A stretch of DNA of 64,000 nucleotides from Chiloscyllium plagiosum (taxonomy: Eukaryota): NCBI RefSeq assembly GCF_004010195.1, contig NC_057749.1, positions 10,751,646-10,815,645 on the forward strand, in the 5' to 3' direction. The notes beneath the pieces were generated by a model that saw only the letters and a program-made list of their open reading frames with translations, did no database searches and was not told where the DNA came from. Numbering within the stretch: position 1 is the first letter of the stretch; every line of letters begins with the position of its first letter. Of this stretch, positions 17,272 to 59,281 are shown piece by piece. A program made the position numbers and the translations under genes.

Positions 17272-17371
17272 AAAAAACAGAAATTGCTGGAAAAGCTCAG
17301 CAGGACTGGCAGCACCTGTGGAGAGAAATCGGAATCAAGTTTCGGGTCAACAGACCCTTCCTCAGAACTGA
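17272..17371 (-). mobile_element. Short PLE family C insertion with 12-bp TSD and hammerhead-like core
   Basis: CTCTGCAGAGTC at 17260-17271 and 17372-17383; minus strand GTT-CTGAGGA-A-GGGTC-tgtt-GACCC-GAAAC. Confidence 0.75.
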
Positions 17372-17699
17372 CTCTGCAGAGTCCAATTTCCTTTCAAAAT
17401 TACTCATTGTCTCTGCTGCCTCCGTGGAGACAGCAAGTTCCATGTCATTCATTGCAGAAAAACAGCCTTCCTCAGGTTTCCCAGAATTTTAAATCTATGT
17501 TCCCCTAACTTTGCATTATCAGAACAGTTAGTTTTTGTCTATTTTATGTGTATCCATCATAATCCTGGACACCTCTGTCAGATCTAGCTCTGCAACCAAT
17601 GTGTTCCAAGGAACTTTTAGGCCAATAGCCTGGGATAAAGCTAATATGAAGAAACTGCACAAACAGAAAAGTTACTGAAACAAAGGGATGGTGCGCTGT

Positions 17700-18110
17700 T
17701 GGACCCTTCCCAGTCATATACTCATCCAAATGCCTTTTAAATGTTGTAATTGTACCAGCCTCCACCACTTCCTCTGGCAGCTCATTCCATACACATATCA
17801 AACTCTGGATGAAAACATTGCCCCATTAAGTTCCTTTTAAATCTTTCCCCTGTCACCTTAAACCTTTAGCTTTGGGCACCCCACCCTGGGGGAAAGACCT
17901 TGGCTATTTACCCTATCAATGCCTCTTGTGACTTTATAAACTTGCATAAGGTCACCCTTCAGCCTCCGACGCTCCCTATAGCTCAAACCTGCCAGACCTT
18001 TCAAGTTTAACAACATCCTTCTAATAGGAGAGAGACCGGAATTATTCCAAAAGCAGCCTAATCAACATCCTGTACAGCCGCAACATGACCTCCCAACCCC
18101 TACACTCAAC
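17700..18110 (-). mobile_element. CR1 LINE 3' fragment
   Basis: Minus-strand CVWNELPEEVVEAGTITTFKRHLD. Confidence 0.85.
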
Positions 18111-18864
18111 GTCTCTGGGTTACTAGCTCAGTGGCAATGCGACCAACTCCCCTTGGTACCTTCAATATCATAAGGTGCTTCACAGGACCATTTAGCAAAG
18201 AAAATTCAATACTTTAGCCACATAAGTAGAAGTCAGGTCAAAAAGCTTGATGAGAGATGTAGGCTTTAAGGAGCGTCTCAATCATGATAGAGAAGCTGAG
18301 AGATTTTGAGAAGGAATGGAAGAGCTCTGCTATAAAACAGCAAGGTTTCCCTCTCACTAGTGAAGAAAGGCAGAGAACAAACTCTGAGACCCTTTCCCAA
18401 CTGGATTGCACGATTGCTCAACAGTTCTGTCTTTGATTATAAGAGTCTGGCAATCAATCTATGATCACTGCAACTGATTGGTTAGGTCTAGGTGTGAACA
18501 CAGAGCAAAATAAACAAACTCGACAGAAGCTATTGGGGGCTGGGCTGTCATCATGGGGGCAGATAAATTTGTGATTGCAGAGATCTTTTAAGGCTCTTGT
18601 AACTAAACTTTGTTGCATATTTAGATATCTCTGCAATGCTCTGAGATACAAAAAATATACAATGCTACGCAGTGAAATGTTCAGACAGGAATGATTCATT
18701 CACATGGGAGCCTCCTGTCACAAAGCAGAGGAGCTTTTTCAGCACAGTGTCTAAGCTGACACTTCACTTCAGACCCAAGATCATTGGGTTTGGTCAGTGC
18801 CTAGGAACAGATCCCGAGTCTGGGAGAGAGCTGAATGCCATGCTCTTGGTACACAGAATAAAAT

Positions 18865-19012
18865 AAGAACTGCCAATGCTGTAGATCTGAAACAAAGATA
18901 GAAACTCCTGGCGAAACTCAACTGTTCTGATGAAGAGTCACCAGCCTTGAAATGTGAACTCTGCTTTCTTCCCACAGACCTGCTGAGCTTTGCCAGTAAT
19001 TTCTGTTTTTGT
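18865..19012. mobile_element. Short palindromic PLE derivative (family C)
   Basis: Inverted arms; GTT-CTGATGA-AGAGTC...GAAATGTG-AAC at 18924-18959 (degenerate HHR). Confidence 0.65.
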
Positions 19013-22000
19013 CTCTTATACTGAATGGCTATGAGCCATTTAGATACAGACCACTGATCTGTCAAGCACATCATCCACTCAAAACCACATTTGTTCCTAA
19101 AATTCATAACTTTCTGTTTAAATGCTAAACACAGCCGACTTCAGTGCTTTGATTATCCATTTATATAAAGAGCTTGTTGATGAATGCATTAAACCGCCTA
19201 GAGACAGTCTCAATTATGACTCAAATACTTAATAATAACCTTCATCTCCAGAAACATGTTGGTATTGAGTGAACATGCAGGAAAGCAAAATAATAATCCA
19301 CATACACACGCATAATTGGAGCCTCAAGGTCAGCTGCTTGCGGAGAGATTACTGAAAGCTCCAACTGCACAGACAGATGTGTGCCAGCAATCTGTGACCG
19401 AACCATGAGAAATTGCTGGAAACCTTGTTCCAATTAAATTGGTGACGGGGGATCAGTGGAGTCACGATGATGATGGCTTCAATATAGTTCTGTGCCAGTG
19501 AATGGTGGCCCCCGTTCTTCCAGAGGTTCAGCGGGCGGTGACTTCAATTAAATCTTAGTTTATGGATTCTGTTGTGGGATATGGGTATCTGCTCCTCATC
19601 CCCAAATGGAGTGGGTTGGCTCAGGCCATTTCAGAGGGCAGTTGTGAGTCAACCACATTGCTTGTGTGTTTGGAGTCATGGGTAGGCCAGGTATTAGTGA
19701 GCCAATGGTTCTTTCACACAACAGCAAGACCAGATTGTGATCGGGATTTTGAGGGGGTGCCGGAAGCGGGATATGGAGATGGTGAGCAATAGGCAGGGAG
19801 GTTCCATCAAATATTCAGGGCCACATGATCGCATCTCCAACTTCTGATCGTCTCGAGGTAATGGAACAGGTCACGGAAACATAGAAATATAGAAAATAGA
19901 CCATAAAACCATAAGACATGGGAGCAGAATTAGGCCATTCAGCCCATCAAGACTGCTCCAACATTCAGTCATGGCTGATAAGTTTCCCAACCCCATTCTC
20001 CTGCCTTCTCCCCATAATCCTTGATCCCCTTACCAATCAGGAATCCATCTCTGTCTTAAATACGCCCAAAGACTTGGCCTCCACAGCCCCCTGTGGCAAT
20101 AAATTCCACAGATTAATCAAATGGAATAAAATGGCCTTTCAGCTCTTCAGGCATGCTCTGCATTCCAACATGATTGTGGCTTACTCAGTTCCCCCATTCC
20201 CGTGTTCCCCCCACTGATCCCTTTAGCCTCAAGAAACAAACCTAACTCCCTCTTGAAAACATTCAACGTTTGAGTCTCGACTGCTTTCAGGGGCAGTGAA
20301 TTCCACTCTGGGTAAAGAAATGTTTGCTCATCTCAGCCTTAAATGACCTACACTGTATCCTTAGACAGGTAAGGATTCCCAGGGTCACTGGAAACATCAT
20401 TTCCTGTGTTTGCCGTGTCTAATCCTATTGGAATTTTGTACATTCTTAGAAAAGAACTCTGTTTTCTCTGCCCTTGATGTTTCCAGAAATGGTCTTTCAT
20501 TTTGTAATTTGTTTTCTCATCTCTCGCCAGAGATTGTATGGTTTTGAATGGGAGTGGGGAGTGGATAAAAGATGACACACTGGGGTGATAATTGGGTAGG
20601 ACACGTTGGATGAACCAGAAAGACTTTCCCATTTAATGTTCCTGGAATATAGGTCTGCTCCATTCAATGGCCTCAACTCAACTTTTCTGACCAATCCCCA
20701 CAACTCTCTAGTTCTCAAAGATGCCAACATTCTGTCTATCCCAACCTTAATGATATTTAATGATGGAGCATACTCTGAGGTGTAGAATTCACAGGATTGA
20801 GTGAAATTTCTCCTCACCTCAGTGCCAAATGATCAGCCACTTATCCTGAGACGGTGCCCCGCATTTTGAAAAAAACAGTAATAGTTTGCATTATTTAGTC
20901 CAACTTGTCTTGGATTCTTCCACATGGAGCTCCAATGTTTCCAGTATTAATCAGATTGCCAGATTCCACCCTGCCAAACACTTTCAGTTCACAATTCTTC
21001 TAAACTGTAAGGAACACAGACCCAATTTACTCAGCTTCCCATTCTAGGGATGAACCTAGTGAAGTTTCACTGCGCTGTGTCCTTCATTAAACATGGAGCC
21101 AATTAATGCAAACATTGCTCCCATGATCCCCTATTAGATCAGAAACCAGCCAAGATGGGAAACACTGGTGGGAAGCTAACTGAGCGCGTTTCTTTGCTCC
21201 AAAGAGTTACAAAATAGTGGCACAGGAATACCTTTACTGTTATAAATACAGCGTGGCCTGCTAATGTAGACATCTCAGTCAAGAAGCAAACATCAAGATT
21301 TATAATGAAAAATGGTTGGCACAGGAAGTGATTATGGTGGGTAAGGATTTGTAGATAGAAAGTACAGACAAGCAAAATATAAATATAAGTGGCAATAAAT
21401 AATATTTAAGTGAATAAGTAGATAACTATTATTTAGTGTCATTGTTCAAATATAATCATGACTCATAAAAATGTTAACACCAAGTGAATCAATGCTGTAA
21501 CATTCCATTGTGCAACAACATCATGTTGAAATTGTTAATAATTTCAGCTTGATAATACCATAATGTAAATAATGCCAATAAACATAGAAACACTGAACTA
21601 TTACAGTGCAGGTAAAGGCCATTCAATCCATCATGTCTGGACTAGCTCTCTAAGCATTCTGCCTTAATGCTAATCTCCTGTGGGGTAATGCCTTTTCCCC
21701 ATTACCCCACACTTTATGTCTTTAATTAACCATCCAATGTTCCTGTTCAATACCTCAACTGACCCTACCTCCAGCACATTTCCAGGCAGTGTATTCCACA
21801 CCTGAACCCCTCGCTCTGTAAAAGAGCATTTTCTCACTCGCATTTGCTACTTTTACAATGCATTTTTAAAACTGCACCCTCTGGCTCTCGATCCTTTTAT
21901 GAGCGGGAATCAGTTTCTCCCCAACGACTCTGTCCAGACCCCTCATAGTTAGAAAAATCTCCCCTTTCCAAAAGCAGTCCCAACATCTCCACTCTAGCCT

Positions 22001-23069: not shown

Positions 23070-23610
23070 GGAAGTGATGGCCAAGTGGTATTACCATAGT
23101 CTGTTAATCCAGAGAGGGGAAAGTGAGGACTGCAGATCAGAGTCAAGAGGTGCTGGAAAAGCACAGCAGATCAGGCAGCATCCGAGGAGCAGGAAAATCG
23201 ATGTTTCGGACAGGAGACCTTCATCAGGAATGAGGGATTCCTGATGAAGGGCTCCTGCCCGAAATGATTTTTCTGCTCCTCGGATGCTGCCTGACCTGCT
23301 GCGCTTTTCCAGCACCTCTCTAACCTTGTTAATCCAGAGAGCCAGGTAACATTCTGGGGACCTGGATTCGAATCCTGCTGTGGCAGTAAGTGTAATTTAA
23401 GTTCAATTAAAAATGTGGAATTAAGAGTTTAATGATGACTATTGTTGGGGGATAACTCATATGTTTCACTAAGTTTCCTTTAGGGAAGGAAACTGCCATC
23501 CTAACCTGGTCTAGTCTACATGTGACTCCAGACCCACAGCAATGTGGTTGACTCTTAACTGCCCTCTGGGCAATCAGGAATGGGTGACACCCACATCCTG
23601 AATGAATGAA
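23070..23610 (+). mobile_element. Second tRNA-derived SINE family (other copies ~40555-40920, 53165-53475, 56070-56370)
   Basis: B-box-like GATTCGAATCC, body CTTTAGGGAAGGAAACTGCC..TACATGTGACTCCAGACCCACAGCAATG, tail GGGCAATCAGG. Confidence 0.7.
23117..23326. mobile_element. Palindromic PLE derivative (family B) with 15-bp TSD and two opposed HHR cores
   Basis: TGTTAATCCAGAGAG at 23102-23116 and 23327-23341; CTGATGA-A-GGGC-tcct-GCCC-GAAA at 23241-23264 (+) and a mirror copy on the minus strand. Confidence 0.85.
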
Positions 23611-23791
23611 AAACATCAGTCCAATGGATGTAAAAGGACTACTTTCCTGCTTCATGTTTAAAACGGTTCACTATTACCTTCCCTAACACCTCAAAATAAG
23701 CAACTCTCCCCAATCACTCAAAAGGTTTCCATCTCAAAAGGCCAGATAAACTGTGTTCTAGTTTGGGCCAATCTAGTTTGGGCCAATTGAT

Positions 23792-24104
23792 GGGCGACAC
23801 GGTGGCACAGTGGTTAGCACTGCTGCCTCACAGCGCCTGAGACCCGGGTTCAATTCCCGCCTCAGGCGACTGACTGTGTGGAGTTTGCACGTTCTCCCCG
23901 TGTCTGCGTGGGTTTCCTCCGGGTGCTCCGGTTTCCTCCCACATTCCAAAGATGTGCAGGTCAGGTGAATTGGCCATGCTAAATTGCCCGTAGTGTTAGG
24001 TAAGGGGTAAATGTAGGGGTATGGGTGGGTTGCGCTTCGGCGGGTCGGTGTGGACTTGTTGGGCCGAAGGGCCTGTTTCCACACTGTAATCTAATCTAAT
24101 CTAA
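23792..24104 (+). mobile_element. HE1-type SINE, young full-length copy
   Basis: CpG-rich, intact A/B boxes, V domain, (CTAAT)n tail. Confidence 0.92.
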
Positions 24105-25999: not shown

Positions 26000-26253
26000 T
26001 GTGTGCTGCTGTGAATGTGAGTGTACACCTTTATGTGTGACTGTGTGTAAGGCATGACTATGTGTCTGCCTGACAGCACGTGTGTATATCTTTACATGAG
26101 ACTATGTTTGTCAGGAGTAACTCTGTGTTCCTCTATCTGGGAGATTATCTTTATATGTGACTACATATGTAGGAGATACGTCTGTGTGTGTCTGACTGTC
26201 TGGGAGAATGTGCATGTGTAGCAGGTCTGGGAGAATGCATGTATAAGGGCTAA

Positions 26254-26294
<41 letters not shown>

Positions 26295-26450
26295 CACCGA
26301 ATGTGTAATTCTGTGTGCGTATCCACCCATCTGGGTGCCATGTGTGGCTGTCTGCATCTGCATCTTTGAGTCTGTCTGTGTGCGTACACGTGTGACCCTG
26401 CATGTGTGCCAGTGGGTGAATGCATGTGATTGTGTCCGTCTTTGTGTGTA
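26000..26450. repeat. TG-rich tract with (TG)n microsatellite
   Basis: Pure (TG)n at ~26257-26292 within degenerate TG sequence. Confidence 0.85.
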
Positions 26451-28289: not shown

Positions 28290-28805
28290 ACTGCATGCAG
28301 GAAGGATGTTATTAAACTGGAAAGGGTACAAAAATGATTTGCAATGATGCTACAAAGACTGGAGGCTTTGAATTATAAGGAGGCAGCTGGATTGGCTGTG
28401 AAAATTTTCCCTGGAGTGTCAGAGGCTGAGAGTGCACCTTGTAGAGGTTTATAAAATCATGACGGGCATCGATAAGGTAAATAGCTCAGGTCGTTTCCCT
28501 AGGGTGGGGGTATCCAAAACTAGAGGGCATAGGTTTAAGGTGAGAGGGGAAAGATTTAAAAGGGACCGAAATTGTAGCATTTTCACGCAGAGGGTGGTGC
28601 GTGTATGGAATAAACAGCCAGAGGAAGTGGGGGAAGCTGGTACAATTACAACATTTTAAAGGCATCTAGATGGATGTTTGAATAGGAAGGGTTTGGAAGG
28701 ATTTGGGCAAAATGCTGGCAAACAGGGCTAGATTAATTTAGGACGAGTCAGTCAGCATGGATGAGTTAGGCCAAAGGGTTCTGTACAGCTCTGTAAGTCT
28801 ATGAC
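28290..28805 (+). mobile_element. CR1 LINE 3' fragment
   Basis: LVEVYKIM..SKTRGHRFKVRGERF..FTQRVVRVWN. Confidence 0.85.
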
Positions 28806-32045: not shown

Positions 32046-32584
32046 ATTCAGGCTGAGACTGCCCTTATAGTGCGGAGGCAGTCCTACACAGTCAGGGGTG
32101 CCATCTTGCAAATGTGATGTTAAACCAAGACCACCTTCTGCCCTTTAAAATGAAATCCTTATTTTGATTTAAATATGGGCATTGTAGGCGATTACCCCTT
32201 TTGGTAGGAAGAATTAAAAAAAAGCTTATCCTCTGATTGGTGAGCTCTGAGATACAGAGGAATCTGGGTGACCCAGAGCTTGAATACACAATAGGTTCAA
32301 ATGCAGGTACAGTAAGCAATCAGGAAAGCTAATGGAGATGTGATCATTTATTACAAGAGGGCTTGAATAAAAAAGGAGGAGTTTATGTTTCAGTTATACA
32401 GAATTAGAATGAGATTTTATTGTCATGTACACTCAAGTATTGGAGTACAGTGAAAAGTATATAAAGTCCCCATTCTCCAGCCCCATCTTAGATATAAAAC
32501 CAAAACCTCAAAAATAAAACAACAGCAGAAATAAAAGAACACCAAACAGTAAGAAAAAGTATAAAATCTTATCGCCAGGAGATC

Positions 32585-34986
32585 AAAATCACACAACACC
32601 AGGTTATAGTCCAACAGGTTTATTTGAAAGCACTAGCTTTCAGAGCGCTGCTTCTTCATAAAGTGGTTGTGGAGTATAAGATCGTAAGACACAGAATTTA
32701 TAGCAAAAGTTTACAGTGTGATGTAACTGAAATTATATATTGAAAAAGACCTGTTTGGTTAAGTCTCTCATCTTTTAGAATTGGCATGTTGGTTTCAGTT
32801 CTTTCAAATGAAAATCCCAGAACTTCTTTTAAAGGTACATTCTCAAGTGAACTTTAACAATAGGTGCCATGTCGGCCCAGACAATGTGTTGAAGATGTCA
32901 GGTGCCCTGTGTGAGGCTGTCTGTGCCCCAATAGTCAGACTGATTCTAATCTAAAAAAGGGATTTACAGAATCTTACATGGATTCATGCAGTTTTTGAGC
33001 AAAATAAAATGTAATTCTGCAAGTACAAATTCACCCCACAAACTTATATATGTGTGTGTATGCATGTGGGTGTGTGTGCGAGGGGGTATAAGTGTCTATG
33101 AGAGAGTGCATGTGTGTGTGTGAGACTGTGGGAGTGCATCCAGACACACACAACAACCATGGGGACCAAACTTGCCCCCCCAATATACCAACATTTTCAT
33201 GCATTGGTTCGAACAAGACTTCTTCTCTATGCAGGACCTCCAACTAACACTATACACCAGGTATATTGATGACATTTTCTTCCTCTGGACCCACAGCAAG
33301 GAATCACTGAAACAACCACACAGTAGATATCAACGAGTTTCATCCCACCATCAAACTCACCATAGACTACTTTTTAGCATCTGTCTCATTCTTGGATACA
33401 TGCATCTCCATCAAGGATGGGCACCTCAGCACCTCATCCTACCACAAACCCACGGATAACCTCACAATGCTATACTACTCCAGCTTCCACCCAAAACACA
33501 TTAAACAACCATCCCCTATGGACAAGCACTATGCATACACGGGATTGTTCAGATGAGGAGGAATGTGATGGGCACTTGGAAGTGCTCAGGGATGCCCTCA
33601 TAAGAGCAGGATACAATGCTCAACTCATCGACCACCAGTTCCAATGTGCCACAGCAAGAAACTGTAATGACCTCCTCAGGAGACAGACACAAGCTGCAAC
33701 CAACAGGGTACCCTTTGTTGTCCAGTACTTCCCAGGAGCTGAAAAACTACGTCATGCTCTTCGCAGCCTGCAACACATCATCCATGAGGATGAGCACCTC
33801 ACCAAGATCTTCTCCATGCCTCCACTGCTCACCTTTAAACAACCACCAAACCTCAAACAGCTTAAAGGATAACACCATACAACTTTGTCATGGCAGGTGC
33901 TGCAAGATGTGTCAAAGTGTCGACACAGATACGACTATTACACATGGGGACACCTCCCACTATGTACGTAGCAGGTACTCATCTGACTCAGCCAACGTTG
34001 TCTATCTCATACACTGCAGGTAAGGATGCCCTGAGGCATGGTACATTGGCAAGGCCAAGCAAAGGCTACGGCAACAGATGAATGGACACGGCACAACAAT
34101 CAATAGACAGGAGTGTTCCCTCCCAGAGAACACTTCAGTGGTCCGGAACATTCGACCTCAGACCTTCGGGTGACCGTCCTCCAAGGCTGACTTCAGGACA
34201 GGCAACAACGCAAAGTGGCCGAGCAGAGGCTGATAGCCAAGTTCGGTGCCCATGGGGATGGCCTCAATCGGGATCCTGGGTTCATGTCCCCACTGCGTGC
34301 ATGTGTATGCGCACACACACACACAATCCTACAGACCCTTTCTCATACACAAGCTCTCTCTCATACGCTCACACATACACACCCACACATGCACCCTCTC
34401 ACAGACATATACCGCTTTACACTCCCACTCACACACGTACACATACACTCACAGACATTCATAATCGCATACACACACATATAAGTTTGTGGGGTGAATT
34501 TGTACTTGCAGAATTATATTTTATTTTGCTCAAAAACCGCATGAATCCATTTAAGAGTCTGTAAAACTCTTTTTTAGAAGTAGAATCAGTCTGGACATTG
34601 GGGCACAGACAGCCTCACACAGGGTACCTTACACCTTCAATGGATTATCTAGGCCGACATGGCACCTAATGTTCAAGTTCACTTGAGAATGTAACTTAAA
34701 AAAAAGTTCTGGGATTTACATATGAAAGAACTGAAACTAACATGCCCATTCTAGAGATGAGAGACTTAACAAACAATCCAGATGTTTTTCAATATATCAT
34801 TTCAGTTGGACCACACTGTAAACTTTTGCTATAAATTTGTTTCTTATGATCTTATACTCCACAACCACTTGAAGGAGCAGTGCTCCGAAAGCTAGTGCTT
34901 CCAAATAAACCTGTTGGACTATAACCTGGTGTTGTGTGATTTTTAACTTCGTACACCCCAGTCCAACACTGGCACCTCCACATCAT
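32585..34986 (+). mobile_element. Penelope-like retroelement (family A), 5'-truncated, with ~0.5-kb inverted pseudo-LTR
   Basis: 32585-~33055 is the reverse complement of ~34470-34944; RT and GIY-YIG remnants lie between; unpaired 3' tail to 34986. Confidence 0.9.
33138..34290 (+). pseudogene. Frameshifted PLE reverse transcriptase and GIY-YIG endonuclease
   Basis: MGTKLAPQYTNIFM, YTRYIDDIFFLW (RT motifs); RVPFVVQYFP; NVVYLIHCR*GCPEAWYIG (GIY-YIG); AEQRLIAKF..GLNRDPG. Confidence 0.9.
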
Positions 34987-35039
34987 ATCTCTATAAAGGT
35001 TTTGGGAACCACATTAGGGCCTAGCCACAGCCTGAAGTT

Positions 35040-35479
35040 CAAAGTTTGTGAGAAGATTTGTAGCTCGGGTGTTCGTTGCTGTGGCTCTGTTCGCCGAGTT
35101 GGAAGTTTTTGTTGCAAACGTTTCGTCCCCTGTCTAGGTGACATCCTCAGTGCTTGGGAGCCTCCTGTGAAGCGCTTCTGTGGCATTTCCTCCGGCATTT
35201 ATAGTGGCCTGTCCCTGCCGCTTCCGGTTGTCAGTTTCAGCTGTCCGCTGTAGTGGCCGGTATGTTGGGTCCAGGTCGATGTGTTTGTTGATGGAGTTTG
35301 TGGATGAGTGCCATGCTTCTAGGAATTCCCTGGCTGTTCTTTGTTTGGCTTGCCCTATAATGGTAGTGTTGTCCCAGTCGAATTCATGTTGCTTGTCGTC
35401 AACGTGTGTGGCTACTAGGGATAGCTGGTCATGTCATTTCGTGGCTAGTTGATGTTCGTGGATGCGGATCGTTAGCTGA
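35040..35479 (-). mobile_element. PLE 3' end (family D) with GIY-YIG C-terminal remnant
   Basis: Minus strand: QLTIRIHEHQLATK*HDQLSLVATH..HEFDWDNTTIIGQ..REFLEAWHS..INKHIDLDPTY, followed by a 3' UTR containing an HHR. Confidence 0.85.
35114..35153 (-). ncRNA. Minimal hammerhead ribozyme motif (intact core)
   Basis: GCA-CUGAGGA-U-GUCACC uagaca GGGGAC-GAA-ACGU-U-UGC: stem I GCA/UGC, palindromic ACGU stem III, GUU cleavage triplet. Confidence 0.75.
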
Positions 35480-35544
35480 TCGTTAGAAGTCTCAGTCAGC
35501 CTGTGAGTCTCACATCGGTCACTGGAACAGGGTACTATTTGTAG

Positions 35545-36085: not shown

Positions 36086-36292
36086 TGCATGTGTGGTGGT
36101 GATATCTTATGAAGAATGGTTCGTCAGGCAAGGTTTTTATCCTCGGAATTCAGAAGAGGAAGGGGTGACTTGATAGAAAGGTCGAAGATTTTGATGGGTT
36201 TTGACTGAGGGGACCTGGAAACCATGGTCCTTTTTATGGGAGGATGTAGAACAATGGATCACTGCTGAGAAATTGGGATTCACCCATTTAAG

Positions 36293-36500
36293 GTGACCAT
36301 AGACCATAGCAACACGACGGCTGGAGGAAGAGCGCCTCATCTTCCGCCTAGGAACCCTCCAACCACAAGGGATGAACTCAGATTTCTCCAGTTTCCTCAT
36401 TTCCCCTCCCCCCACCTTGTCTCAGTCAAATCCCTCGAACAGCAACACATTTTCAGCTCTGATCTCCAGCATCTGCAGTCCTCACTTTCTCCTAGAAGAG
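36293..36500 (+). mobile_element. PLE family B 3' fragment with internal deletion and 14-bp TSD
   Basis: RRLEEERLIFRLGTLQPQGMNSDF joined to the family B tail; TTCACCCATTTAAG at 36279-36292 and 36501-36514. Confidence 0.85.
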
Positions 36501-38138: not shown

Positions 38139-38343
38139 CATGATGTGGAGGTGCTGGTGTTGGACTGGGCTGGGCAAGGTCAGAAGTCACATGACCCCAG
38201 GTTATAGTCCAACTGGTTTATTTGAAATCACAAGCTTTTGGAGCGTTGCTCCTTCACCCTGATGAAGGAACAATGCTCCAAAAGCTTGTGATTTCAAATA
38301 GCCGTGTTGGATTGTAACCTGGTGTCATGTGACCTCTGACCCT
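38139..38343. mobile_element. Palindromic PLE derivative (family A)
   Basis: Tail CATGATGTGGAGGTG.., inverted arms centred ~38258, CTGATGAAGGAAC..GCTCCAAAAGCTTGTG. Confidence 0.8.
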
Positions 38344-41299: not shown

Positions 41300-41610
41300 A
41301 GATTAGCTTAGATTACCTACAGTGTGGAAACAAGCCCTTTGTCCCAACAAGTCCACACCAACCCTCCGAAGAGCAACCCACCCAGATCCATTCCCCTACA
41401 TTTATCCCTGACTAACACACCTAACACTATGGGCAATTTAGCACGGCCAATTCACCTAACCTGCACATCTTTGGACTGTGGGAGGAAACCCATGCAGACA
41501 CAGGGAGAATGTGCAAACTCCACACAGACAGTTGCCCGAGGCGGGAATTGAACCTGGGTCCCTGGCACTGTAAGGCAGCAATGCTAACCACTGAGTCACT
41601 GTGCCGCCCA
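41300..41610 (-). mobile_element. HE1-type SINE
   Basis: Reverse full-length copy. Confidence 0.85.
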
Positions 41611-44465: not shown

Positions 44466-44600
44466 TTTGATTTAAAAAAGCCTTCCTTGTCAGCTCAGTC
44501 ATAGTATCATGCAACTGAAATATTCAATATATTGTTTCAGTTGCACGACAATGTAATCTTTTGCTATAAATTCTGTGTCTTATGATCCAGCCCCTCTAAC

Positions 44601-44635
44601 TACCTGATGAAGGAGCAGGGCTCTGAAAGCTAGTG
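44601..44635 (+). ncRNA. Minimal hammerhead ribozyme motif (family A)
   Basis: UAC-CUGAUGA-A-GGAGC agg GCUCU-GAA-AGCU-A-GUG. Confidence 0.65.
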
Positions 44636-44819
44636 TTTCCAAATAAAACTGTTGAACTATAACCTGGTGTTGTGTGATTTTTAATTTTGTCCACCCCAGT
44701 CTAACATTGGCTCTTCCACATCTTGAAATGAAGCATTTTGTTGACAATGCAGTACTTGCCCCCCAGATCTGAAGATGGTAAATTCACAGACACAGCAGAG
44801 AAACCTAAGCACCACATGA

Positions 44820-45114
44820 GGGCTGCCACTCACAGTGCAGTGCTGAGGGAGTGCCGCACTCATGGAAAAAGGGAGCTATAGGAGGAGACCTTTAGCTGAA
44901 GGCCATATCTGTCCTCTCAGATGGACATAAAAGATCCCATCACAAACCTTGAAAGGGAACATGGGAGATCTCCCAGATTCCTGGTCAATATTGGACCCTC
45001 AGCAAGTGCAAACAGAGCATTCGAGGCAGTATATTGCTGTTCGCGGGAGCTGTCTGTCAGCCAATTTGTTGCCACTTTCCCTACTTTACAACAGCTCCTC
45101 CACTTTAAAAGGTC
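44820..45114 (+). mobile_element. Deu-domain SINE (SacSINE1/AmnSINE-like), degenerate
   Basis: CAGTGCAGTGCTGAGGGAGTGCCGCAC...CTCTCAGATGGACATAAAAGATCCCAT...CCTGGTCAATATT. Confidence 0.6.
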
Positions 45115-45146
45115 CTGCATTGTCGGCAAAATGCTTCATTTCAAGA

Positions 45147-45823
45147 CGTGGAGGTGCCGGCGTTGGACTGGGCTGGACAAAGGTAACAATCACACAACAC
45201 CAGGTTATAATCCAACAGGTTTATTTGGAAGCACTAGCTTTCGGAGCACTGTTCCTTCATCAGGTAGCTAGAGGGGCTGGATCATAAGAGGCAGAATTTA
45301 TAGCAAAAGATTACAGTGTCGTGCAACTGAAATATTCAATATATCGTTTCAGTTGCATGACACTGTAATCTTTTGCTAATAATTCTGTGTCTTATGATCC
45401 TGCTCCACAACCACCTGATAAAGGAGCAGCACTCCGAAAGCTAGTGCTTCCAAATAAACCTGTTGGACCATAATCTGGTGGGTTGAGACTGGTTACACTG
45501 GATTAGATTACTTAGTGTGGAAACAGGCCCTATCGGCCCAACAAGTCCACACCGACCCTCTGAACAGCAACCCACCCAGACCCATTCCCCTACATTTACC
45601 CCATTCACCTAACACTATGGGAAAGTTAGCATGGCCAATTCACCTGACCTGCACATTTTTGGACTGTGGGAGGAAACTGGAGCACCCAGAGGAAACCCAC
45701 GCAGACACGGGGAGAATGTGCAAACTCCACACAGACAGTCGAACCCTGGTCTCCGGCATTCTGAGGCAGCAATGCTAACCATTGTGCAACCGTGCCACCC
45801 ACACATGTTGTGTGATTTTTAAC
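45147..45823. mobile_element. Palindromic PLE derivative (family A, ~350 bp) with 11-bp TSD, interrupted by an HE1 SINE (~45500-45800, minus)
   Basis: TCATTTCAAGA at 45136-45146 and 45824-45834; inverted arms centred ~45338. Confidence 0.85.
45232..45266 (-). ncRNA. Minimal hammerhead ribozyme motif (family A)
   Basis: UAC-CUGAUGA-A-GGAAC agu GCUCC-GAA-AGCU-A-GUG. Confidence 0.65.
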
Positions 45824-47721: not shown

Positions 47722-48047
47722 GTTGCCAAGGTTGGAGGGTTTGAGCCAAAGGGAGAGGCTGAACAAGCTGGGGCTGTTTTCCCTGGAGAATCGGAGGCTG
47801 AGGGGTGATCTTAATGAAGTTTATAAAATCACAAGGAGCATGGATAGGGAGAATAGACCAAGGTCTTTTCCCCAAGGTAAGGGAGTCCAGAACCAGAGGG
47901 CATTGGTTTAAAGTGAGAAGGGAAAGATTTAACAGGGCCCTTAGGGGCAGCTTTTTCATGCAGAGGGTAGTATGTGGAATGGGCTGCCAGAGGAAGTGGT
48001 GGAGGCTGGTACAATTGCAGCATTGAAAAGGCGTCTGGATGGGTATG
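47722..48047 (+). mobile_element. CR1 LINE fragment
   Basis: LEGLSQRERLNKLGLFSLENRRLRGDLNEVYKI. Confidence 0.85.
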
Positions 48048-48439
48048 TTGTACCTTTGGTTTCTGCATATCATTTATGTTGACATTTCGTGTGAAGTTCA
48101 AACCCATTCAAACCCACCTGCGTCAATGATCACACTTGTGTCAATAAACTTACATTGACTGTCAATCCAGCAGCATTTTGATTTAAAGGTTCTTTTGCAC
48201 TTTGTGTAGATAGATCAATTCAGACTCAATGGGCCGAGTATAAGTCCATGACCATAACTTCTTCCACAGCCTCACACAAACCCCCTCTCTCTTTCCCAAT
48301 ATCTCTTTCTCCCTCTCTGCCTCTTTTGCTTTTGTATTCCCTTTCTCCCTCTTTCCTTTTAACTTTATCTCCCTCTCTCTCTCATTTTTTCTCACTCTCA
48401 TTCTCTACCCTCTCTTTCATTTTCTCCCTCTGTCTCTCA

Positions 48440-48730
48440 GAGTCATAGAGATGTACAGCATGGAAAGGGACCTTTCAGTCCAACTCATCCATGCTGACCA
48501 GATAGCCTAAATTAATCTAGTCCCATTTGTTAGCACCTGGCCCAAATCCCTCTGAACCCGTCCTATTCATACACCCATCCAGATGCCTTTTAAATGCTGT
48601 AATTGTACCAGCCTCCACTACTTCCACTGGCAGCTCATTTCATACACGCATTATACACCTCTGCGTGAAAAGTTTGCCCCTTAGGTCCCTTTTAAATCTT
48701 TGCCCTCTCCCCTTAAGCCTATGCCATCTC
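48440..48730 (-). mobile_element. CR1 LINE 3' fragment
   Basis: Reverse tail GAGTCATAGAGATGTACAGCATGGAAA and reverse ELPVEVVEAGTI motif. Confidence 0.8.
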
Positions 48731-49449: not shown

Positions 49450-49970
49450 AGAGTTTTGAGAAGATTTGTAGCTCAGGTTGAGGCTCTGGATGTAGATTTG
49501 CTCACTGAGCTGCAAGGCTTGTTTTCAGACATTTTGTCACCATTAGTGCATCTCCGGATGAAGCCCTGGTGGCATGGTCCGCTTTATATTTATGTGTTTG
49601 GGTTTCCTTCGGTTGGTGACATCATTTCCTGTGGTGACACCATTTCCTGCAGTGATGTCATTTCTTAATCTTTTTCTCAAGGAATGGTAAACGGGATCCA
49701 AGTCAATGCGTTTGCTGATAGATTTCGGGTTGGAATGCCATGCTTCTAGGAATTCCCACGCGTGTCTCTGTTTCGCTTGTCCTAGGATGGGTGTGTTGTC
49801 GGAGTCGAATTTGTGTCCTTCCTCATCACCAACCCAAGGAAACCCAAACACATAAATAAAAGCGGGCCATGCCACCAGTGCTTCATCTGGAGACTCACTG
49901 ATGATGTTAACTAGCACGGTGACGAAACATCTGAAAACAAACCTTCCAGTTCAGCAAGCAAACCTACACC
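49450..49970 (-). mobile_element. PLE 3' fragment (family D-like) with inverted pseudo-LTR
   Basis: Minus-strand EEGHKFDSDNTPILGQAKQRHAWEFLEAWHS..IDLDPVY; 49828-49970 is an inverted copy of ~49480-49618. Confidence 0.85.
49895..49934 (+). ncRNA. Minimal hammerhead ribozyme motif (family D-like)
   Basis: UCA-CUGAUGA-U-GUUAAC uagcac GGUGAC-GAA-ACAU-C-UGA; stem I UCA/UGA; ACAU consistent with CpG decay of ACGU. Confidence 0.6.
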
Positions 49971-50042
49971 TGCAAAGAAAGGAATGGAAGCTGAAGGCCA
50001 TAAAATACAGGAGGAGAACCAGGCCATTCAGTCCCTCATACA

Positions 50043-50222
50043 GGAGAAAGTGAGGACTGCAGATACTGGAGATCAGAGTTGAGAATAGGGTGCTGGAAAA
50101 GCACAGCAGGTCAGGCAGCATCTGAGGAGCAGGAGGATCGGCCTTTTGGGCATAAGCCCTTCATTCTCCTGCTCCCCGGATGCTGCCTGACCTGCTGTGA
50201 TTTTCCAGCACACCACTCCCAA
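50043..50222. mobile_element. Palindromic PLE derivative (family B)
   Basis: AAAGTGAGGACTGCAG tail, arm GCAGGTCAGGCAGCATC and its inverse GATGCTGCCTGACCTGC. Confidence 0.75.
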
Positions 50223-52142
50223 CCCACATTCAGCCCATCGAGTCTGCTGCCTGCAGAAGGTGGGGGTGAGCCACTTTCTTGAACTGCTGCAGCCCATGTA
50301 ATTCCACCAGTGTGGAAGCATCGAGTCTACGCTGACCCTCCGATGAGCATCCCACCTTATCCCTGCATTTCTCGAGGTTAACTCAATTGGACTGCACATC
50401 CCCATACACTGTGGCCATTCCACCCAACCTGCACATCTTTGGACTGTAAAAGAAAACCCCACACAGACACAGGGAGAGTGTGCAAACACCACACAGCGTT
50501 ACCCAAGGTTGGAATCGAACCCATGCCCCTAGCGTTGTGAGGCAGCAGTGTTAACCACTGAGCCACTGCGCAAAAGGGACATCACGGAATTGAGAGCCAT
50601 CCTGATGCTGTAGTGGAGGAGACAATGGTGGAAAGCGGGTCAGGTGGTCTGACTGTGCAAGTATTTCTCTTCTTTTCCCCTTCAGCAGCTGACAAATAAG
50701 GCTTTGCTGGCTATCAGTGGGAAAATCCTATCTACTTGTGACTCCACCTTCAAGGAGCTGTGAACCTGCACTCCAAGGTCTCTTTGCTCGGCAACATTCC
50801 CCAGGCCCTTACCATTAAGAGTAGAAGTCCTGCCCTGATTTGCCTTTCCAAAACGCAGAAAATAAAAAGCAAGACTACAAGGTAGTTCTTACATGGAGCT
50901 TGCACACACTCAATCGGCTGAATAGCTTCCTTTTGTGTTGTATTAACCTATGAAGCGTATCGGTTTGGATTCCTCTCCCTTGGGTTAAAACACGAGACAA
51001 TATAATGGCTTTCCAGTGGCTATGCGTATCTAAGGTAAACACAGTGGAGGAAACCATGGAAATCTAAATCCCCTGTTGTTCAGTTACTCCTGAATTGAAT
51101 TGTTAAAGATTACAGAGGGTCTGACCTTGCATCGTGAAGACGATAAGTAATATATCTAGATTATTTCAATTATTTAGTTGGACTGAGTTATGAGATGAGA
51201 TCCACACACAGTTTTCAGACTCTGTTGTTCTCAGAGAGATGGCCTTTAGGTCAGTATTTCTTCCCACAGCTTGCTTGATTCATCACAACCGATGGCACTA
51301 GTGTTGCGATTTACAAACAAGCTGTTGGCTAAAGGAACATACAACAAGTCAGAGGCCAGTTAAATATTAACTCACAATAACAATGACGGACTAGGAAACA
51401 ATGATTCCACAATGTGAAGTAAGAATGTTTCGAACTATCTTTTATATGCAACAGAGCGATTAACTGACAAAAACCATCAGGGTTAAACAGAGGAAAACAA
51501 ATCAGGTTTGTTTGATCCGCTTGACTGGTTAAATGGGCAAACATCTGCAAATATACAGGTCCCAGTCATTATCTCTTCTATGAACTGGTCAATTCACTGG
51601 GAACACCCATTCCCCTCCAAGCCACTCACCAGCCTGACTTGGAAATATATTGCTGTTCCTTCAGTGTCGCTGGGTCAAAATTCTATAATTCCTTCCCAGC
51701 GTCAACCCACAACAGGTAGACTGCTGCGGTTTGAGAAGGCAGCTCCCCACCACCTTCTCAAGGGGCAACTAGGGACGAGCAATAAATGCTGGCCCAGCCA
51801 GTGATGCTCACATCCCACAAGAGGAATAAATTAAAAAATAAATAAACAAAGATTCGTTCATATCAAATGAACTATATGATCGTGACATCTCAGGAAGTGC
51901 TGTCTCTACATGAATAGAAGACTGTAGACCAACAGTCAATCCCTTAGTCAGTTTCATTGAGAGCCATTCTGCAATATTTCTTCCTAAGGAGCGTCCTCTG
52001 TAAGGATTGCAGGGATAGGGTAAGGGGTGAGTCTGAGTGGGATGCTCTTCAGAGGATCGGTGTGGACTGAATGGGCTGAATGGCCTGCTTCCACACTGTA
52101 TAAATTCTATCATTCTTTGATAAAGAGAACGCAAATATTTAA

Positions 52143-52290
52143 GATAAGAACAGGAATTGCTGAAAAAGCTCAGCAGATCTGGCAGTATCTGTGGAGAGAA
52201 ATCAAAGTTAATGTTTCGGCTCCAGTGACCCTCCCTCAGAACTAAGTTTCTGTTTTTGTTTCTGATTTCCAGCATCTGCAGTTCTTTCAG
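52143..52290. mobile_element. Palindromic PLE derivative (family C)
   Basis: Minus strand GTT-CTGAGGGAGGGTC-actg-GAGCC-GAAACATTAAC; tail GATTTCCAGCATCTGCAG. Confidence 0.7.
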
Positions 52291-52469: not shown

Positions 52470-52803
52470 GCAGTAGAGTCCCTACAGTGTAGAAACAGGC
52501 CCTTCAGTCCAACAAGTCCACACCAACCCTCCAAAGAGTAACCCACCCAGACCCATTCCCCCAACCCATATTTACTCTTGACTAATCCACCCTAACCTAC
52601 ATATCCCTAAACGCTATGGAGCAATTTAGCATTTCCTCCCACATCTTTGGACTGTGGGAGGAAGCCAGAGCACCTGGAGGAAACCCACGCAGAAACGGGG
52701 AGAATGTGCAAACTTCACACAGATAGTCACCCGAGGCTGGAATTGAACCCAGGTCCCTGGCGCTGTGAGGCAGCAGTGTTAACCATCAAGCCACCGTGCT
52801 GCC
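52470..52803 (-). mobile_element. HE1-type SINE
   Basis: Reverse copy with tRNA-like head and V domain. Confidence 0.85.
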
Positions 52804-55675: not shown

Positions 55676-55995
55676 AGATTAGATTAGATTACCTACAGAG
55701 TGGAAACAGGCCCTTCGGCCCAACAAATCCACACCCACCCTCCGAACAGAAACCCACCACCCCTACATTTACCCCTGACCAATCCACCCAACACTACGGC
55801 AATTTAGCATGGCCAATTCATCTGACCTGCACATCTTTAGACTGTGGGAGGAAACTGGAGCACCCGGAGGAAACCCACGCAGACACGGGGAGAATGTGCA
55901 AACTCCACACAGACAGTTGCCTGAGGCGGGAATTGAACCCGGGTCCCTGGCGCTGTGAGGCAGCAGTGCTAACCACTGAGCTACTGTGCCGCCCC
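55676..55995 (-). mobile_element. HE1-type SINE
   Basis: Reverse full-length copy with (TAATC)n tail. Confidence 0.9.
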
Positions 55996-56744
55996 CAAAA
56001 GGCAGAAATTCTACTCTTTTCTGCTCCCAACATAAAACTTTTCTCCTGAATTTCTCACTTCTCTCGGGCATGGCCAATGACCTAGTGATACTATCGCCAG
56101 CAGTCCCTCTGAACAACGCTATTACTCCAGAGACCCAGGTAGTGTTCTGGGGTCCAAGACTTCGAATCCCAATATGGCAGATGGTGGAATTTGAATGTAA
56201 TAAAAATCTGGAATTAAGAGTCTAATGATGACTGTGAGAGTCTAATAATGATCATGAAACCATTGCCAATTGTTAGAAACATCCATCTGGTTCATTAATA
56301 TCCTTCAGGGAAAGAAACTGCTGTCCTTATCTGGTCTGGCCTACATGTGACTCCAGAACCACAGCAATGAAATTCACCAAAGATTCTCAGACAGCACCAT
56401 TATAACCTCTCAGTTCAAGTACACTCCTTTTTGCCCTGTCTGCAGTGCATCCTGGGTCTACATTATTAACAGTAACAATAAAGGCAGCAGAAAGAAGGAA
56501 TGCCACCAGCTGCAAGTTCCCCTCCAAGCCAGTCACTGTCCTGATTTGGAAATATATCGCCGTTCCTTCATGGTCGCTGGGTCAAGATCCTGGAAATCCC
56601 TCCCTAAGGGCATTGTGGGTCAACCCACAGCAGGTGAACTGCAATAGTTCAAAAAGGTAGCTCACCACCACCTTCTCAAGGGCAACTAGGGACGGGCATT
56701 AAATGCTGGCCCAGCCAGTAACACCCACAACAAGCTTTCTTAGA

Positions 56745-57360
56745 CTCTTCATGTGGATGCATTGGTTACAAAGGCCCAACAATGTCTCGTCTTCCTCAGG
56801 CAACTGAGGATATTTGGCATGATGCAAATATCCTTGCCAACTTTTATAGGTGCGCCATCGAGATCATTCTGTCTGGATGCATGACTACCTACCGAAGGGC
56901 CTGTTTCCACTCTGTATGGCAACTGTACCATTCAAGATCGTAGCTGGTTACAGAGAATGGTGAACTCGGCCGGACAATCACAAAGGCCAACCTCCCATCT
57001 ATAGACTCCATCTACCAGGCCCCCTGTCAAGGAAAGGCCGCCAGCATTCTCAAAGATCCATCCCATTCTGGCAATGTCTTTCTCCAACCTCTCCCATGGG
57101 GAAGAAGGTACAGAAGCCTGAACCCGCACCAGCCAGTTTCAAAACAGTTTCTACCCTACTGTTATTAAAATACTGAATAAACTTACAAACTCTTAATGTT
57201 CGCCTGCACCTGTGTTTTTGTTTTTGCTGCTATTTACCCATTAGTTACTTATCTATGCTACTTAACTCTGTAATCTGCCTGTATTGCTCGTGAGACAGAG
57301 CTTTTCACTTTGCCTCGGTACACGTGACAATAAATTTAATTCAATGCAATTCAATTCAAT
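56745..57360 (+). mobile_element. Rex/Babar-type non-LTR retrotransposon 3' end
   Basis: KAQQCLVFLRQLR..NFYRCAIEIILSGC; AATAAA then (ATTCA)n tail. Confidence 0.7.
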
Positions 57361-58224
57361 CCCACAAATGAGTTTTAAAAAAAACACCAAAAATTGGGCG
57401 CTATGCTAATCTATTGTTGAAAGGCTTCAAGCCAGCTTTGTTCCAAATGCCAGCCAAGATGCTCAAACTTTCACTGATATCCCCCTTGATAGCTGACGAT
57501 ACAATGGGCTCTAAAAGCACAATCCTTGCTGCTCCTATGAGCAGTAGCTCGGCAAATAGCCCTACAGTTTGTTGCTGTCTAGTTACTGTCAACACTGATG
57601 AATTAGGCTTTCACTTGAGCAGAATGCTATCCACATTAATTCAGAAACACAATCACTTAGACTGTTAAAGGATAAATATTACATGCAGTCCCTGGAATAA
57701 AATAGCCCGAGATAAATTGTTTTTTTATTACAGTTGTTCACACAAGCTATAACACACATCTATATTATATTTCAAACTATTTCATGCTATGGTGAAATAT
57801 TTTAGTGGCAGCATTACGTTGTGGAGATGTTATCCCCAAAATTACTGCACAGGATATAATATGTGAAGCTGAATGCGTTTACACATTGTTCTGGATGTTA
57901 TTTTAGTGCAGGCTTATCTAATTCATTTCAAATCTCTTTAGGCCTCCCATAAAACAACATAGCAATGAAAGCATCGAGTAAGCATCATTGATGTTGCAAT
58001 CCTCTACAAATCATTCGTTGTACTCCAAGCTTCTGTAAAATGCAATGTGTCGGCACATTACACAGATGTTGTACAGTGGTTACATACATCATATAAGAAA
58101 GATTTCCTCTGTGACTCAATGAGAACTCGGTTCGCTGGGAAAAGGTCACAGGTTCAGAAGGCTTACAATTTAGGTTGACGCTTGAGTGGTCTGTTGGATT
58201 GTGTGCAGTACTGTCTTTGGGATG

Positions 58225-58456
58225 AGGTCAGAAATCACACAGCACCAGGTTACAGTCCAACAGGTTTATTTGAAATCACAAGCTTTCGGGGCACTGCACC
58301 TTCATCAGGTGGAGTCTGTCCCTCCGTCTTCACCAGACGAAGGAGCAGTGTTCCAAAAGCTTGTGATTTCAAATAAACCTGTAGGACTATAACCTGGCGT
58401 CGTGTGACTTGTGACCTTGTCCACCCCAGTCCAACACCGGCACCTCCACATCATGG
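58225..58456. mobile_element. Palindromic PLE derivative (family A) with 10-bp TSD
   Basis: CTTTGGGATG at 58215-58224 and 58457-58466; inverted arms plus unpaired tail. Confidence 0.85.
58277..58311 (-). ncRNA. Minimal hammerhead ribozyme motif (family A)
   Basis: CAC-CUGAUGA-A-GGUGC agu GCCCC-GAA-AGCU-U-GUG. Confidence 0.65.
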
Positions 58457-58717
58457 CTTTGGGATGCAATTTGAAACTGTAACCCTGTCTGCCCACTCAG
58501 CTGGATGGAAGCCAATTCCAGGCCACTGCTTTGAAAAAGGGATGGGGCTGTTCTCTCCAGGGTCCTTGTCGCTCAGCTGTTGGGTTACTTTGAGATAAAC
58601 TAGCCCTCATCTATCACTGACCTCGCACTGCCATTTTAACAACAGTGTGGGGGGCAGGGGAGGGGTGTGGTGGGGGGGGTGGGGGGTAACCTGACAAAGA
58701 CTGCAGCGGTTCAAGAA

Positions 58718-59017
58718 GGCACGGTGACACAGTGGTTAGCACTCACAGCGCCTGAGACCCAGGTTCAATTCCCGCCTCAGGTGACTGACTGTGTGGAGTT
58801 TGCACATTCTCCCCGTGTCTGCGTGGGTTTCCTCCGGGTGCTCCGGTTTCCTCCCACAATCCAAAGATGTGCAGGTCAGGTGAATTGACCATGTTAAATT
58901 GCCCGTAGTATTAGGTAATGGGTGAATATAGGGGTATGGATGGGTTGCGCTTCGGCGGGTCGGTGAGGACTTGTTGGGCCGAAGGGCCTGTTTCCACACT
59001 GTAATGTAATGTAATGT
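58718..59017 (+). mobile_element. HE1-type SINE, young
   Basis: Near-identical to 23792-24104; (TGTAA)n tail. Confidence 0.9.
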
Positions 59018-59112
59018 AAAAAGAAAATGTAAAAGGCAGCTCACCACCACCTCCATTTCCAGGCCAATCCCAGATGCCAAATAAACAAACATCTGAAGTA
59101 AGAAAATTTTGT

Positions 59113-59281
59113 AGGCGAAATGAGGACTGCAGAGGTTAGAGTCAAGATTAGAATGGTGCTGGTAAAGCACAGCAGGTTAGACAGCATCTGAGGAGCAGGA
59201 AAATCGACGTTTCGGGCATTCCTGATGAAGGCTCCTGCCTGAAATGTCGATTTTCCTGCTCCTCGGATGCTGCCTGACCTG
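59113..59281. mobile_element. Palindromic PLE derivative (family B)
   Basis: Inverted arms around 59218; degenerate flanking repeat TAAGAAAATTTTGT/TAGGAAGATTTTGT. Confidence 0.75.
59220..59250 (+). ncRNA. Minimal hammerhead ribozyme motif (family B)
   Basis: UC-CUGAUGA-AGGC uccu GCCU-GAA-AUGU-C-GA; GUC cleavage triplet. Confidence 0.55.

Follow-up and report, generated by a model that had tools for sequence, protein, structure and literature searches.

We analyzed a window of 64,000 nt from the genome of Chiloscyllium plagiosum (GCF_004010195.1, contig NC_057749.1, positions 10,751,646-10,815,645 of the forward strand), in which short segments with the order of a hammerhead ribozyme recur on both strands. 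These segments are, with high confidence, the 3' ends left by endonuclease-bearing Penelope-like retroelements (PLEs) of at least four lineages, each with a type-I minimal hammerhead, and many of the copies are joined head to head. The assembly spans 3.56 Gb in 101,977 contigs, and the window is ~44% G+C and rich in interspersed repeats. All counts rest on the window and on ~280 kb of other loci of the same genome (designated by L numbers), and 223 kb of flanks were not chosen for the motif. Four families, A to D, were defined by self-comparison of the window and by searches of its own genome; the candidate numbers from the genome searches are a first look and not copy numbers.

An earlier reading of the letters (the sequence-only reading) had placed minimal hammerheads at a set of coordinates in this window. 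At these sites, the order from 5' to 3' is a stem I strand, CUGANGA, one unpaired base, stem-loop II, GAA, a four-base ANNU, position 17, and the stem I complement; judged from the sequence, this is the order of a type-I hammerhead without a helix III hairpin. Pattern search and parsing recovered this order at every one of the coordinates, including 52246(-), where the box is mutated. For example, the family A copy at 44604(+) consists of stem I (44601-44603 and 44633-44635), CUGAUGA (44604-44610), an unpaired A (44611), stem-loop II (44612-44624), GAA (44625-44627), AGCU (44628-44631), and A17 (44632); the predicted cut is between 44632 and 44633. The cut of the family D copy at 35150(-) is predicted between 35117 and 35116.

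We applied two patterns, a two-box pattern (CUGAKGA, 5-30 bases, GAAA) and a full descriptor, which asks for a stem I of at least 2 bp, a stem II of at least 3 bp, an ANNU able to pair, and any base but G at position 17. The idea that the motifs are chance matches of a loose pattern inside abundant repeats draws on the two boxes alone, which are scarcely enriched: the window contains 11 matches, compared to 4.39 ± 2.47 in shuffled sequences, and 2 of 100 shuffles reach 11. Ten of these matches are at coordinates of the sequence-only reading, the remaining one (1431) lies outside every family, and so do matches at 12595 and 44769. However, the whole descriptor has 4 matches in the window versus a mean of 0.005 (maximum 1) in 200 shuffles. 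Exact-box family copies number 10 in the window and 117 in the 335 kb of window and loci, and none of the 28 box-only matches found outside the families in the same 335 kb passes the descriptor. In addition, four unrelated flank contexts share the core, the extra unpaired base, the G10.1-C11.1 pair, and the palindrome. The chance-match reading is refuted by these three results, and we regard it as extremely improbable.

Four families and the covariation of their helices

The families have the following parts: (i) family A, with stem I (C/U)AC/GUG, stem II GGAGC/GCUCY, an AGCU palindrome, and A at position 17, plus a tail of ~110 nt after the motif and 3112 first-look genome candidates; (ii) family B, with stem I UC/GA (extended by a U.U mismatch plus one A-U pair), stem II GGGC/GCCC, an ACGU palindrome, and C at position 17, split into two subfamilies that have U or A at the free position 7, and 2965 first-look candidates; (iii) family C, with stem I (A)GUU/AAC(U), stem II GGGUC/GACCY, an ACGU palindrome, and U at position 17, and with 1636 first-look candidates; (iv) family D, with stem I GCA/UGC or UCA/UGA, stem II GUCACC/GG(G/U)GAC (in the GGGGAC form, one mismatch, A.G), U as the unpaired base, an ACGU palindrome, and U at position 17, and with 1111 first-look candidates, the best 40 of which are 96-98% identical. 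The tail after the motif is ~80-130 nt across the lineages. Parsing of the copies bore out the stem I and stem II strings that the sequence-only reading had described for the four families, and also its stem III, given as AGCU in A and ACGU in B and D and as decayed in the window copies of C; the consensus of C is also ACGU.

We label family D a young lineage. Sampled words of the family D copy 35036-35478 were present in contigs of runs with four coded organism labels, in shares of 0.22-0.86; thus, the family or its close relatives are not confined to one species label.

The unpaired base between A9 and position 10.1 is present in 116 of the 117 exact-box copies, as A in families A (37/37), B (47/47), and C (26/27), and as U in family D (6/6). 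The outermost pair of stem II, G10.1-C11.1, is G-C or G-U in 109 of the 117 copies; C11.1 and G12 make up a CpG, and a C-to-T change there accounts for the G-U forms. AGCU is kept in 35 of the 37 copies of A. For B, C, and D together (80 copies), ACGU is kept in 33, and another 35 have AUGU or ACAU.

A covariance model was trained on 11 natural copies of B, C, and D, with family A not in the training set. The pair counts across all families, A included, were made by a script on the 117 descriptor-parsed exact-box copies of the 335 kb of window and loci, because the B/C/D model missed A and MAFFT misregistered it: the MAFFT alignment of all four families, in which A was one column out of register, was dropped as a basis for pair counts. 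According to the script, the modal pairs differ between families and are still complementary at three stem I and three stem II positions. For example, the pair 2.1-1.1 is C-G, C-G, U-A, and A-U in A, B, C, and D, respectively, and the pair 10.3-11.3 is A-U, G-C, G-C, and C-G. The third stem I pair varies within family A, being C-G in 16 copies, U-G in 14, and U-A in 5.

The B/C/D model gave 102 matches at E<=0.001 in 343 kb. On the alignment of these matches, 86.0% of cells are paired versus 78.8 ± 0.6 in shuffles, and the covariation score is 0.252 versus 0.147 (none of 500 shuffles was as high in either case), the test being inflated because a structure-fitted alignment of related copies underlies it. 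Changes on both sides were found in 7 of the 9 pairs, a number that 29 of 500 shuffles reach; when the partner was slid by 1-3 columns, pairing fell to 8-64%. These counts support the covariation across families that had been claimed in the sequence-only reading, with family A entering through the script. The further claim, that the ribozymes were under selection in each lineage, would hold for the source elements but does not extend to the window copies, which are mostly decayed.

The link to GIY-YIG endonucleases

The Penelope-like identity, initially assumed, was borne out for each family by remnants of a GIY-YIG endonuclease upstream of the ribozyme on the same strand; these are inside the window for A, B, and D and in two other loci for C. 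The remnants were detected by tblastn with remnants of other loci, read through with X at stops. Of 150 places in the genome that were scored with the Pfam GIY-YIG model, 47 exceeded the cut-off, and the decayed copy L092 contains a typical C-terminal endonuclease with an upstream Cys motif.

In family A, the motif is ~750 nt past the end of a third endonuclease lineage, and two loci (L009 and L027) are homologous throughout, from the endonuclease to the tail; in the window, remnants at 33576-34244(+) stand before the copy ending at 34984 (linker 69% over 85 residues, E=4e-37). In family B, the distance from the end of the open reading frame (ORF) to the motif is 232-234 nt in L019 and L024, and 232 nt in the window, where the ORF end is at 5218-5159(-). 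The family C motif is 281-302 nt past the ORF end of a second endonuclease lineage (L075 and L078). For family D, the window segment 35532-35137(-) is itself an endonuclease ORF end (E=1.6e-71 versus the L091 copy). Thus, the hammerhead is 230-800 nt past the ORF end in A, B, and C, whereas in D the two overlap. Between lineages, the endonucleases are 32-44% identical, or not alignable.

Several results weigh against this reading of the copies as hammerhead-bearing PLE fragments. An Rfam scan of the 64-kb window gave no match at the gathering score, and the 22 matches obtained at E up to 10 include no hammerhead; the scan with hammerhead models that the sequence-only reading had proposed thus came out negative, and the hammerhead call has no curated-model backing. 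It should be noted that this silence is expected, because the helix III hairpin is missing; the only Rfam signal on the fold-backs is weak microRNA (miRNA)-like matches. Folding of six natural copies gave z below -1.9 in only two, and in both of these (family B) the best fold is a competing hairpin, with the core paired with the cut region. Stem I proper of family B is just 2 bp. The B/C/D model misses family A at E<0.1 (best E=0.36), hence the families share little beyond ~16 core bases, and the inflation of the shuffle test noted above belongs here as well. No reverse transcriptase (RT) or GIY-YIG match of Pfam was found in the 49 window ORFs of at least 110 aa, and the long genomic copies are N where the RT is expected. 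Finally, 255 single-cell poly(A) reads on family D, a poor probe for cleaved ends, form no pile of read ends at the predicted cut, and ends are not numerous at any other position either. These reads have the first mate on the plus strand in a ratio of ~5:1, their depth climbs toward the 3' end of the element, and 76% of the read matches continue into dissimilar flanks.

Copies in the window, their decay and density

The copies identified in the window are as follows; the start of the CUGA box is given where it helps to locate the motif.

44503..44755, plus strand: family A, complete minimal hammerhead, box at 44604, passes the descriptor.
45112..45364, minus strand: family A, box start 45263, passes the descriptor with one A.C mismatch in stem II; left arm of a head-to-head pair.
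45372..45480, plus strand: family A, right arm of the pair 45198-45480, box decayed to CUGAUAA.
58225..58452, both strands: family A head-to-head pair; minus arm with both boxes exact (58308) and a stem II down to 2 bp, plus arm from 58332 with a decayed box.
38158..38341, both strands: family A head-to-head pair with the junction within the hammerhead; both arms have CAAAA for CGAAA.
33576..34984, plus strand: long 5'-truncated family A copy with remnants of the linker between RT and endonuclease (EN) and of the GIY-YIG domain (33576-34244), a CA-rich 3' untranslated region (UTR), a relic with a box deletion at ~34855, and the tail end at 34984.
32580..33139, minus strand: inverted partner of the copy 33576..34984, arms 77-92% complementary; box mutated at ~32677.
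59166..59287, plus strand: family B fold-back unit; hammerhead from 59222 with stem I UC/GA, stem II GGC/GCC, AUGU, and C17.
23146..23319, both strands: family B head-to-head pair, relics 23227(-) and 23241(+); palindromes lost (ACAU, AUGA).
4838..5218, minus strand: family B 3' end, beyond the span of the sequence-only reading, with the last 20 endonuclease codons (5218-5159), a 232-nt 3' UTR, a relic at 4933-4890 (GAAA changed to AAAA), and the tail.
2766..2944, both strands: decayed family B fold-back.
50054..50247, both strands: decayed family B-like fold-back, assigned only by a weak miRNA-like hairpin and a BLAST match to the B tail.
17273..17372, minus strand: short family C copy, box at 17365; a 1-nt deletion breaks the palindrome, position 17 is G, and a 12-nt direct repeat flanks the copy.
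52146..52246, minus strand: short family C copy, box mutated to CUGAGGG (52246), palindrome ACAU.
18920..19010, plus strand: family C-like copy, box at 18927, stem II weakened, palindrome AUGU, G at position 17.
35036..35532, minus strand: young 5'-truncated 3' end of family D; ORF 35532-35137, box at 35150, hammerhead 35153-35114.
49491..49990, both strands: diverged D-like head-to-head pair; plus-arm hammerhead at 49898 (ACAU, one A.G in stem II), minus-arm endonuclease remnants at 49830-49624.
36267..36392, plus strand: C-terminal endonuclease remnant of the family B lineage, with the downstream hammerhead region deleted.

Among the 10 exact-box copies of the window, three (44604+, 45263-, and 35150-) are complete in every part of the descriptor, and 59222+ is the fourth if a G.U pair is allowed in the palindrome. 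All three window copies of family C are broken, whether by a 1-nt deletion, by a mutated box, or by having G as base 17. The recognizable relics amount to ~20, with 10 copies of B, C, and D found by the model (E<0.01) and 9 box-reaching family A arms found by BLAST; the estimate of more than 10 recognizable copies in 64 kb made in the sequence-only reading therefore holds. Much of the decay is the loss of CpG: the ACGU palindromes were lost through it, and it influences which relics appear intact. ACGU and the C11.1-G12 step are mostly found as TG or CA, and C11.1 is often U; the well-preserved AGCU of family A contains no CpG.

The 223 kb of independent flanks contain 27 exact-box and 12 complete copies, i.e., 7.7 and 3.4 per 64 kb, values that are close to those of the window and agree with the very high genomic density anticipated from the window. 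A crude extrapolation, to be taken as rough given that the flanks adjoin other copies and may be enriched, is a few 10^5 motifs per genome, ~10^5 of them descriptor-complete.

Head-to-head pairs are found at 45198-45480, 58225-58417, 38158-38341, 23146-23319, 59166-59287, 32580-33139 with 34389-34948, and 49491-49990. No tandem array with a hammerhead was found in the window (Tandem Repeats Finder reported 5 arrays, the longest period being 38), and no family has two intact same-strand copies close together there. Since most copies are mutated and have no intact same-strand partner nearby, the window copies are not expected to cut, and dimer cleavage at these loci appears unlikely. In the fold-back 59166..59287, the antisense arm pairs with GAAA, the cut-site, and the tail half; such an arm would sequester the cut site.

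The window also contains other repeats. One of them, ~310 nt long and very abundant (80-92% identity between copies), has no relation to the hammerhead families, and ARAGORN detected no tRNA-like head in the window; a second abundant family has a length of ~400 nt and 75-85% identity between copies. Rfam also matched SCARNA7 weakly at four places (21-26 bits, the gathering score being 65), which probably represent a repeat rather than genes; two of the four are inside arms of the family A inverted pair.

23787-24104, 63636-63954, 10849-11156, 55679-55994, 58718-59019, 41300-41609, 45501-45740, 9204-9485, and 52474-52785: copies of the ~310-nt repeat.
10105-10504, 14085-14470, 1758-2125, 28411-28708, 48436-48725, 17703-17975, 47783-48046, and 12054-12248: copies of the ~400-nt repeat.
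26162-26308, 34417-34563, 2501-2651, and 32944-33105: weak SCARNA7 matches.
12646-12818: GA microsatellite of ~87 units.

Putative function, alternative readings and known systems

In the mechanism that we consider most likely, reverse transcription would start in the tail, downstream of the hammerhead; such a start, combined with the 5' truncation of most copies, would make the last few hundred bases, including the ribozyme, accumulate in the genome. Any action of the ribozyme would take place in multimeric transcripts, made from active source elements in tandem. There, as published work on similar motifs suggests, two hammerheads may pair via their ANNU palindromes to form helix III and be cut after position 17, possibly with assistance from the protein of the element. 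Whether cleavage would be the function of the motif, as the published systems suggest, we regard as evenly balanced.

Family D has an overlap of the ribozyme with coding sequence. The stop codon TAG of the endonuclease ORF (35136-35134, minus strand) is inside loop II, and an ATG (35144-35142, minus strand) is made up of A9, the unpaired U, and G10.1, followed by a 36-codon frame that runs to the end of the element. In the diverged D copy at 49898, the TAG is found at the equivalent position. Among 150 matches to the 36-residue D tail peptide, a few have long open frames, and the one examined ends at the usual tail. A bolder reading, which we consider doubtful, is that family D would be a Poseidon-type element with recent activity, whose hammerhead would overlap both the end of the RT-EN ORF and the start of the ORF after it in a single module, with an intact frame only on uncut tandem or circularised RNA, and that the units starting at stem I and the fold-backs with a fixed junction would have multiplied as parasites of the same machinery, giving ~10^5 complete minimal hammerheads. 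If true, this number would be far more than reported for any vertebrate.

Many copies might also be short non-autonomous elements in their own right, similar to short interspersed elements (SINEs) or retrozymes, that borrow the Penelope machinery and are not randomly truncated PLEs. The candidate units are the hammerhead plus tail of ~100 nt and the fold-back of ~125-150 nt with a fixed junction; this explanation overlaps with the preferred one and does not replace it, and we consider it rather unlikely. About 20 of the 27 copies of family C (loci L062-L090 and the window) lose homology to long copies 4-9 nt upstream of the CUGA box, i.e., they start at stem I; this 5' end, which may mark a transcription start, is not accounted for by hammerhead cleavage, the site of which is ~38 nt downstream. 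The copy 17273-17372 is flanked by the 12-nt direct repeat GACTCTGCAGAG (window 17260-17383), and the target-site test of family C, in which a shared word of at least 8 nt was found in 5 of 23 copies versus 6 of 115 mismatched controls, is in weak agreement. The best 40 genomic matches of the fold-back 59166-59287 (in Rfam, a weak miRNA-like hairpin of 56.9 bits versus a gathering score of 105) are on both strands over the same span, with 86-93% identity, and the family B fold-backs that could be scored (L032-L060) share one symmetry axis, inside the CUGAUGA box. The available part of a 2026 preprint (Li et al.) derives animal retrozymes from the pseudo-long terminal repeats (pLTRs) of Penelope elements. 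However, these B loci were picked by likeness to the fold-back query, so that the shared axis is partly ascertainment, and the axes of incidental B pairs range between -7 and +10. For the family D matches, the 5' end that they share is the end of the query copy itself, and L091 extends further upstream; the window copies of A, B, and D continue into endonuclease remnants; and without a hammerhead-bearing array in the window the layout that defines retrozymes is absent. A tRNA scan of the window (ARAGORN) gave 0 genes, thus no sign of tRNA-derived SINE heads.

Self-cleavage itself may be beside the point: the motif could be kept as a protein-binding or folding signal near the start of reverse transcription and, in family D, by coding constraint through the overlap of the ORF end and the ATG, a possibility that we hold to be quite improbable. 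It is consistent with the finding that metazoan minimal hammerheads cut poorly in vitro and as dimers only, for which the authors leave other roles open (PMC4209133). Catalytic mutants of PAc, the Poseidon-type element of Anolis carolinensis, insert normally in vitro, its cutting requires protein, and RNA-seq had no ends at the cut, according to the accessible portion of the report (PMC11167929); lineages without hammerheads proliferate well, as stated in the available part of Craig et al. (2021). The family D reads, with no pile of ends at the cut, point the same way, but poly(A) single-cell reads are ill suited to detect cleaved ends. Conversely, conservation falls precisely on the catalytic core and on a non-G base at position 17, and a self-complementary ANNU is kept across lineages, as catalysis by dimers requires. 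Coding constraint cannot apply to A, B, and C, because their motif is 230-800 nt past the stop codon.

As 3'-terminal PLE fragments with minimal hammerheads, the copies share the CUGANGA...GAAA core, the cut after a non-G base, and the type-I topology with the canonical type-I hammerheads of Rfam (Hammerhead_1 and relatives); they differ from these in having no helix III hairpin and no stem I/II loop contacts. Animal non-LTR retrozymes are said to have been treated by Cervera and De la Peña in 2020. The accessible text of the 2026 preprint (Li et al.) describes such retrozymes, reported in one cartilaginous fish, as short non-coding units with a type-I hammerhead that are related to Penelope pLTRs, features shared with our copies; their tandem arrays and hammerheads with helix III and loop contacts contrast with the missing helix III and the lack of a motif-bearing array here.

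The closest likeness is to the minimal hammerheads of metazoan PLEs (Cervera and De la Peña 2014, PMC4209133), and, by their sequence, the window families have every defining sequence feature of these motifs. Shared are the type-I order, the lack of a helix III hairpin, the palindromic 15.2-16.2 pair, with a self-complementary 4-mer at positions 15.1-16.1 that could pair across two copies, the unpaired base between A9 and 10.1, G10.1-C11.1, and several families per genome with compensatory changes, as well as the prevalence of single motifs in truncated elements and opposite-strand pairs 100-700 bp apart. That paper lists fishes, coelacanth, frog, and reptiles as vertebrate hosts, whereas the host here is shark-like and not in its list. 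Compared to its Schistosoma examples, the helices are shorter here (stem I of 2-4 versus 4-5 bp, stem II of 4-6 versus 7-8 bp), and the extrapolated ~10^5 copies, a rough number obtained with a different descriptor, would far exceed the ~4,000 in coelacanth and ~9,000 in Xenopus given there. Inverted 5'-truncated partner copies of PLEs, as given in the available part of Craig et al. (2021), correspond to our head-to-head pairs.

In PAc (PMC11167929, in the portion accessible), reverse transcription starts internally, downstream of the hammerhead. Its ATG position, at the start of stem II, is mirrored in family D, for which the cut is predicted 25 nt past that codon; an A/C-rich tail after the motif ends the genomic copies, which fits a start of reverse transcription within the first part of the ORF. 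Family D differs in that the endonuclease stop is inside loop II, leaving almost no non-coding spacer, and its 36-codon frame after the ATG is a candidate ORF start only. The in vitro activity of minimal hammerheads is low (PMC4209133), and that of PAc is protein-dependent (PMC11167929, same portion).

We found no account of shark Penelope hammerheads in the literature; the supplements of the 2014 paper and the 2026 preprint, which were outside this search, may list such motifs. In the papers on shark repeats that were consulted, Penelope is only listed among the repeats. Our finding leaves the knowledge of how minimal hammerheads work unchanged. Specialists may find three points useful: how dense the motif is, that the ribozyme of the young family D overlaps a stop codon and an ATG, and that many short copies have a common 5' end at stem I. 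In annotation, masking as Penelope-type repeats is the proper treatment of the relics, which should be annotated neither as ribozyme genes nor as miRNA hairpins. The finding adds a cartilaginous fish to the hosts whose Penelope-like elements carry minimal hammerheads; since the core is kept in four lineages whose endonucleases are barely alignable, it also provides good comparative support for a constraint on the ribozyme fold.

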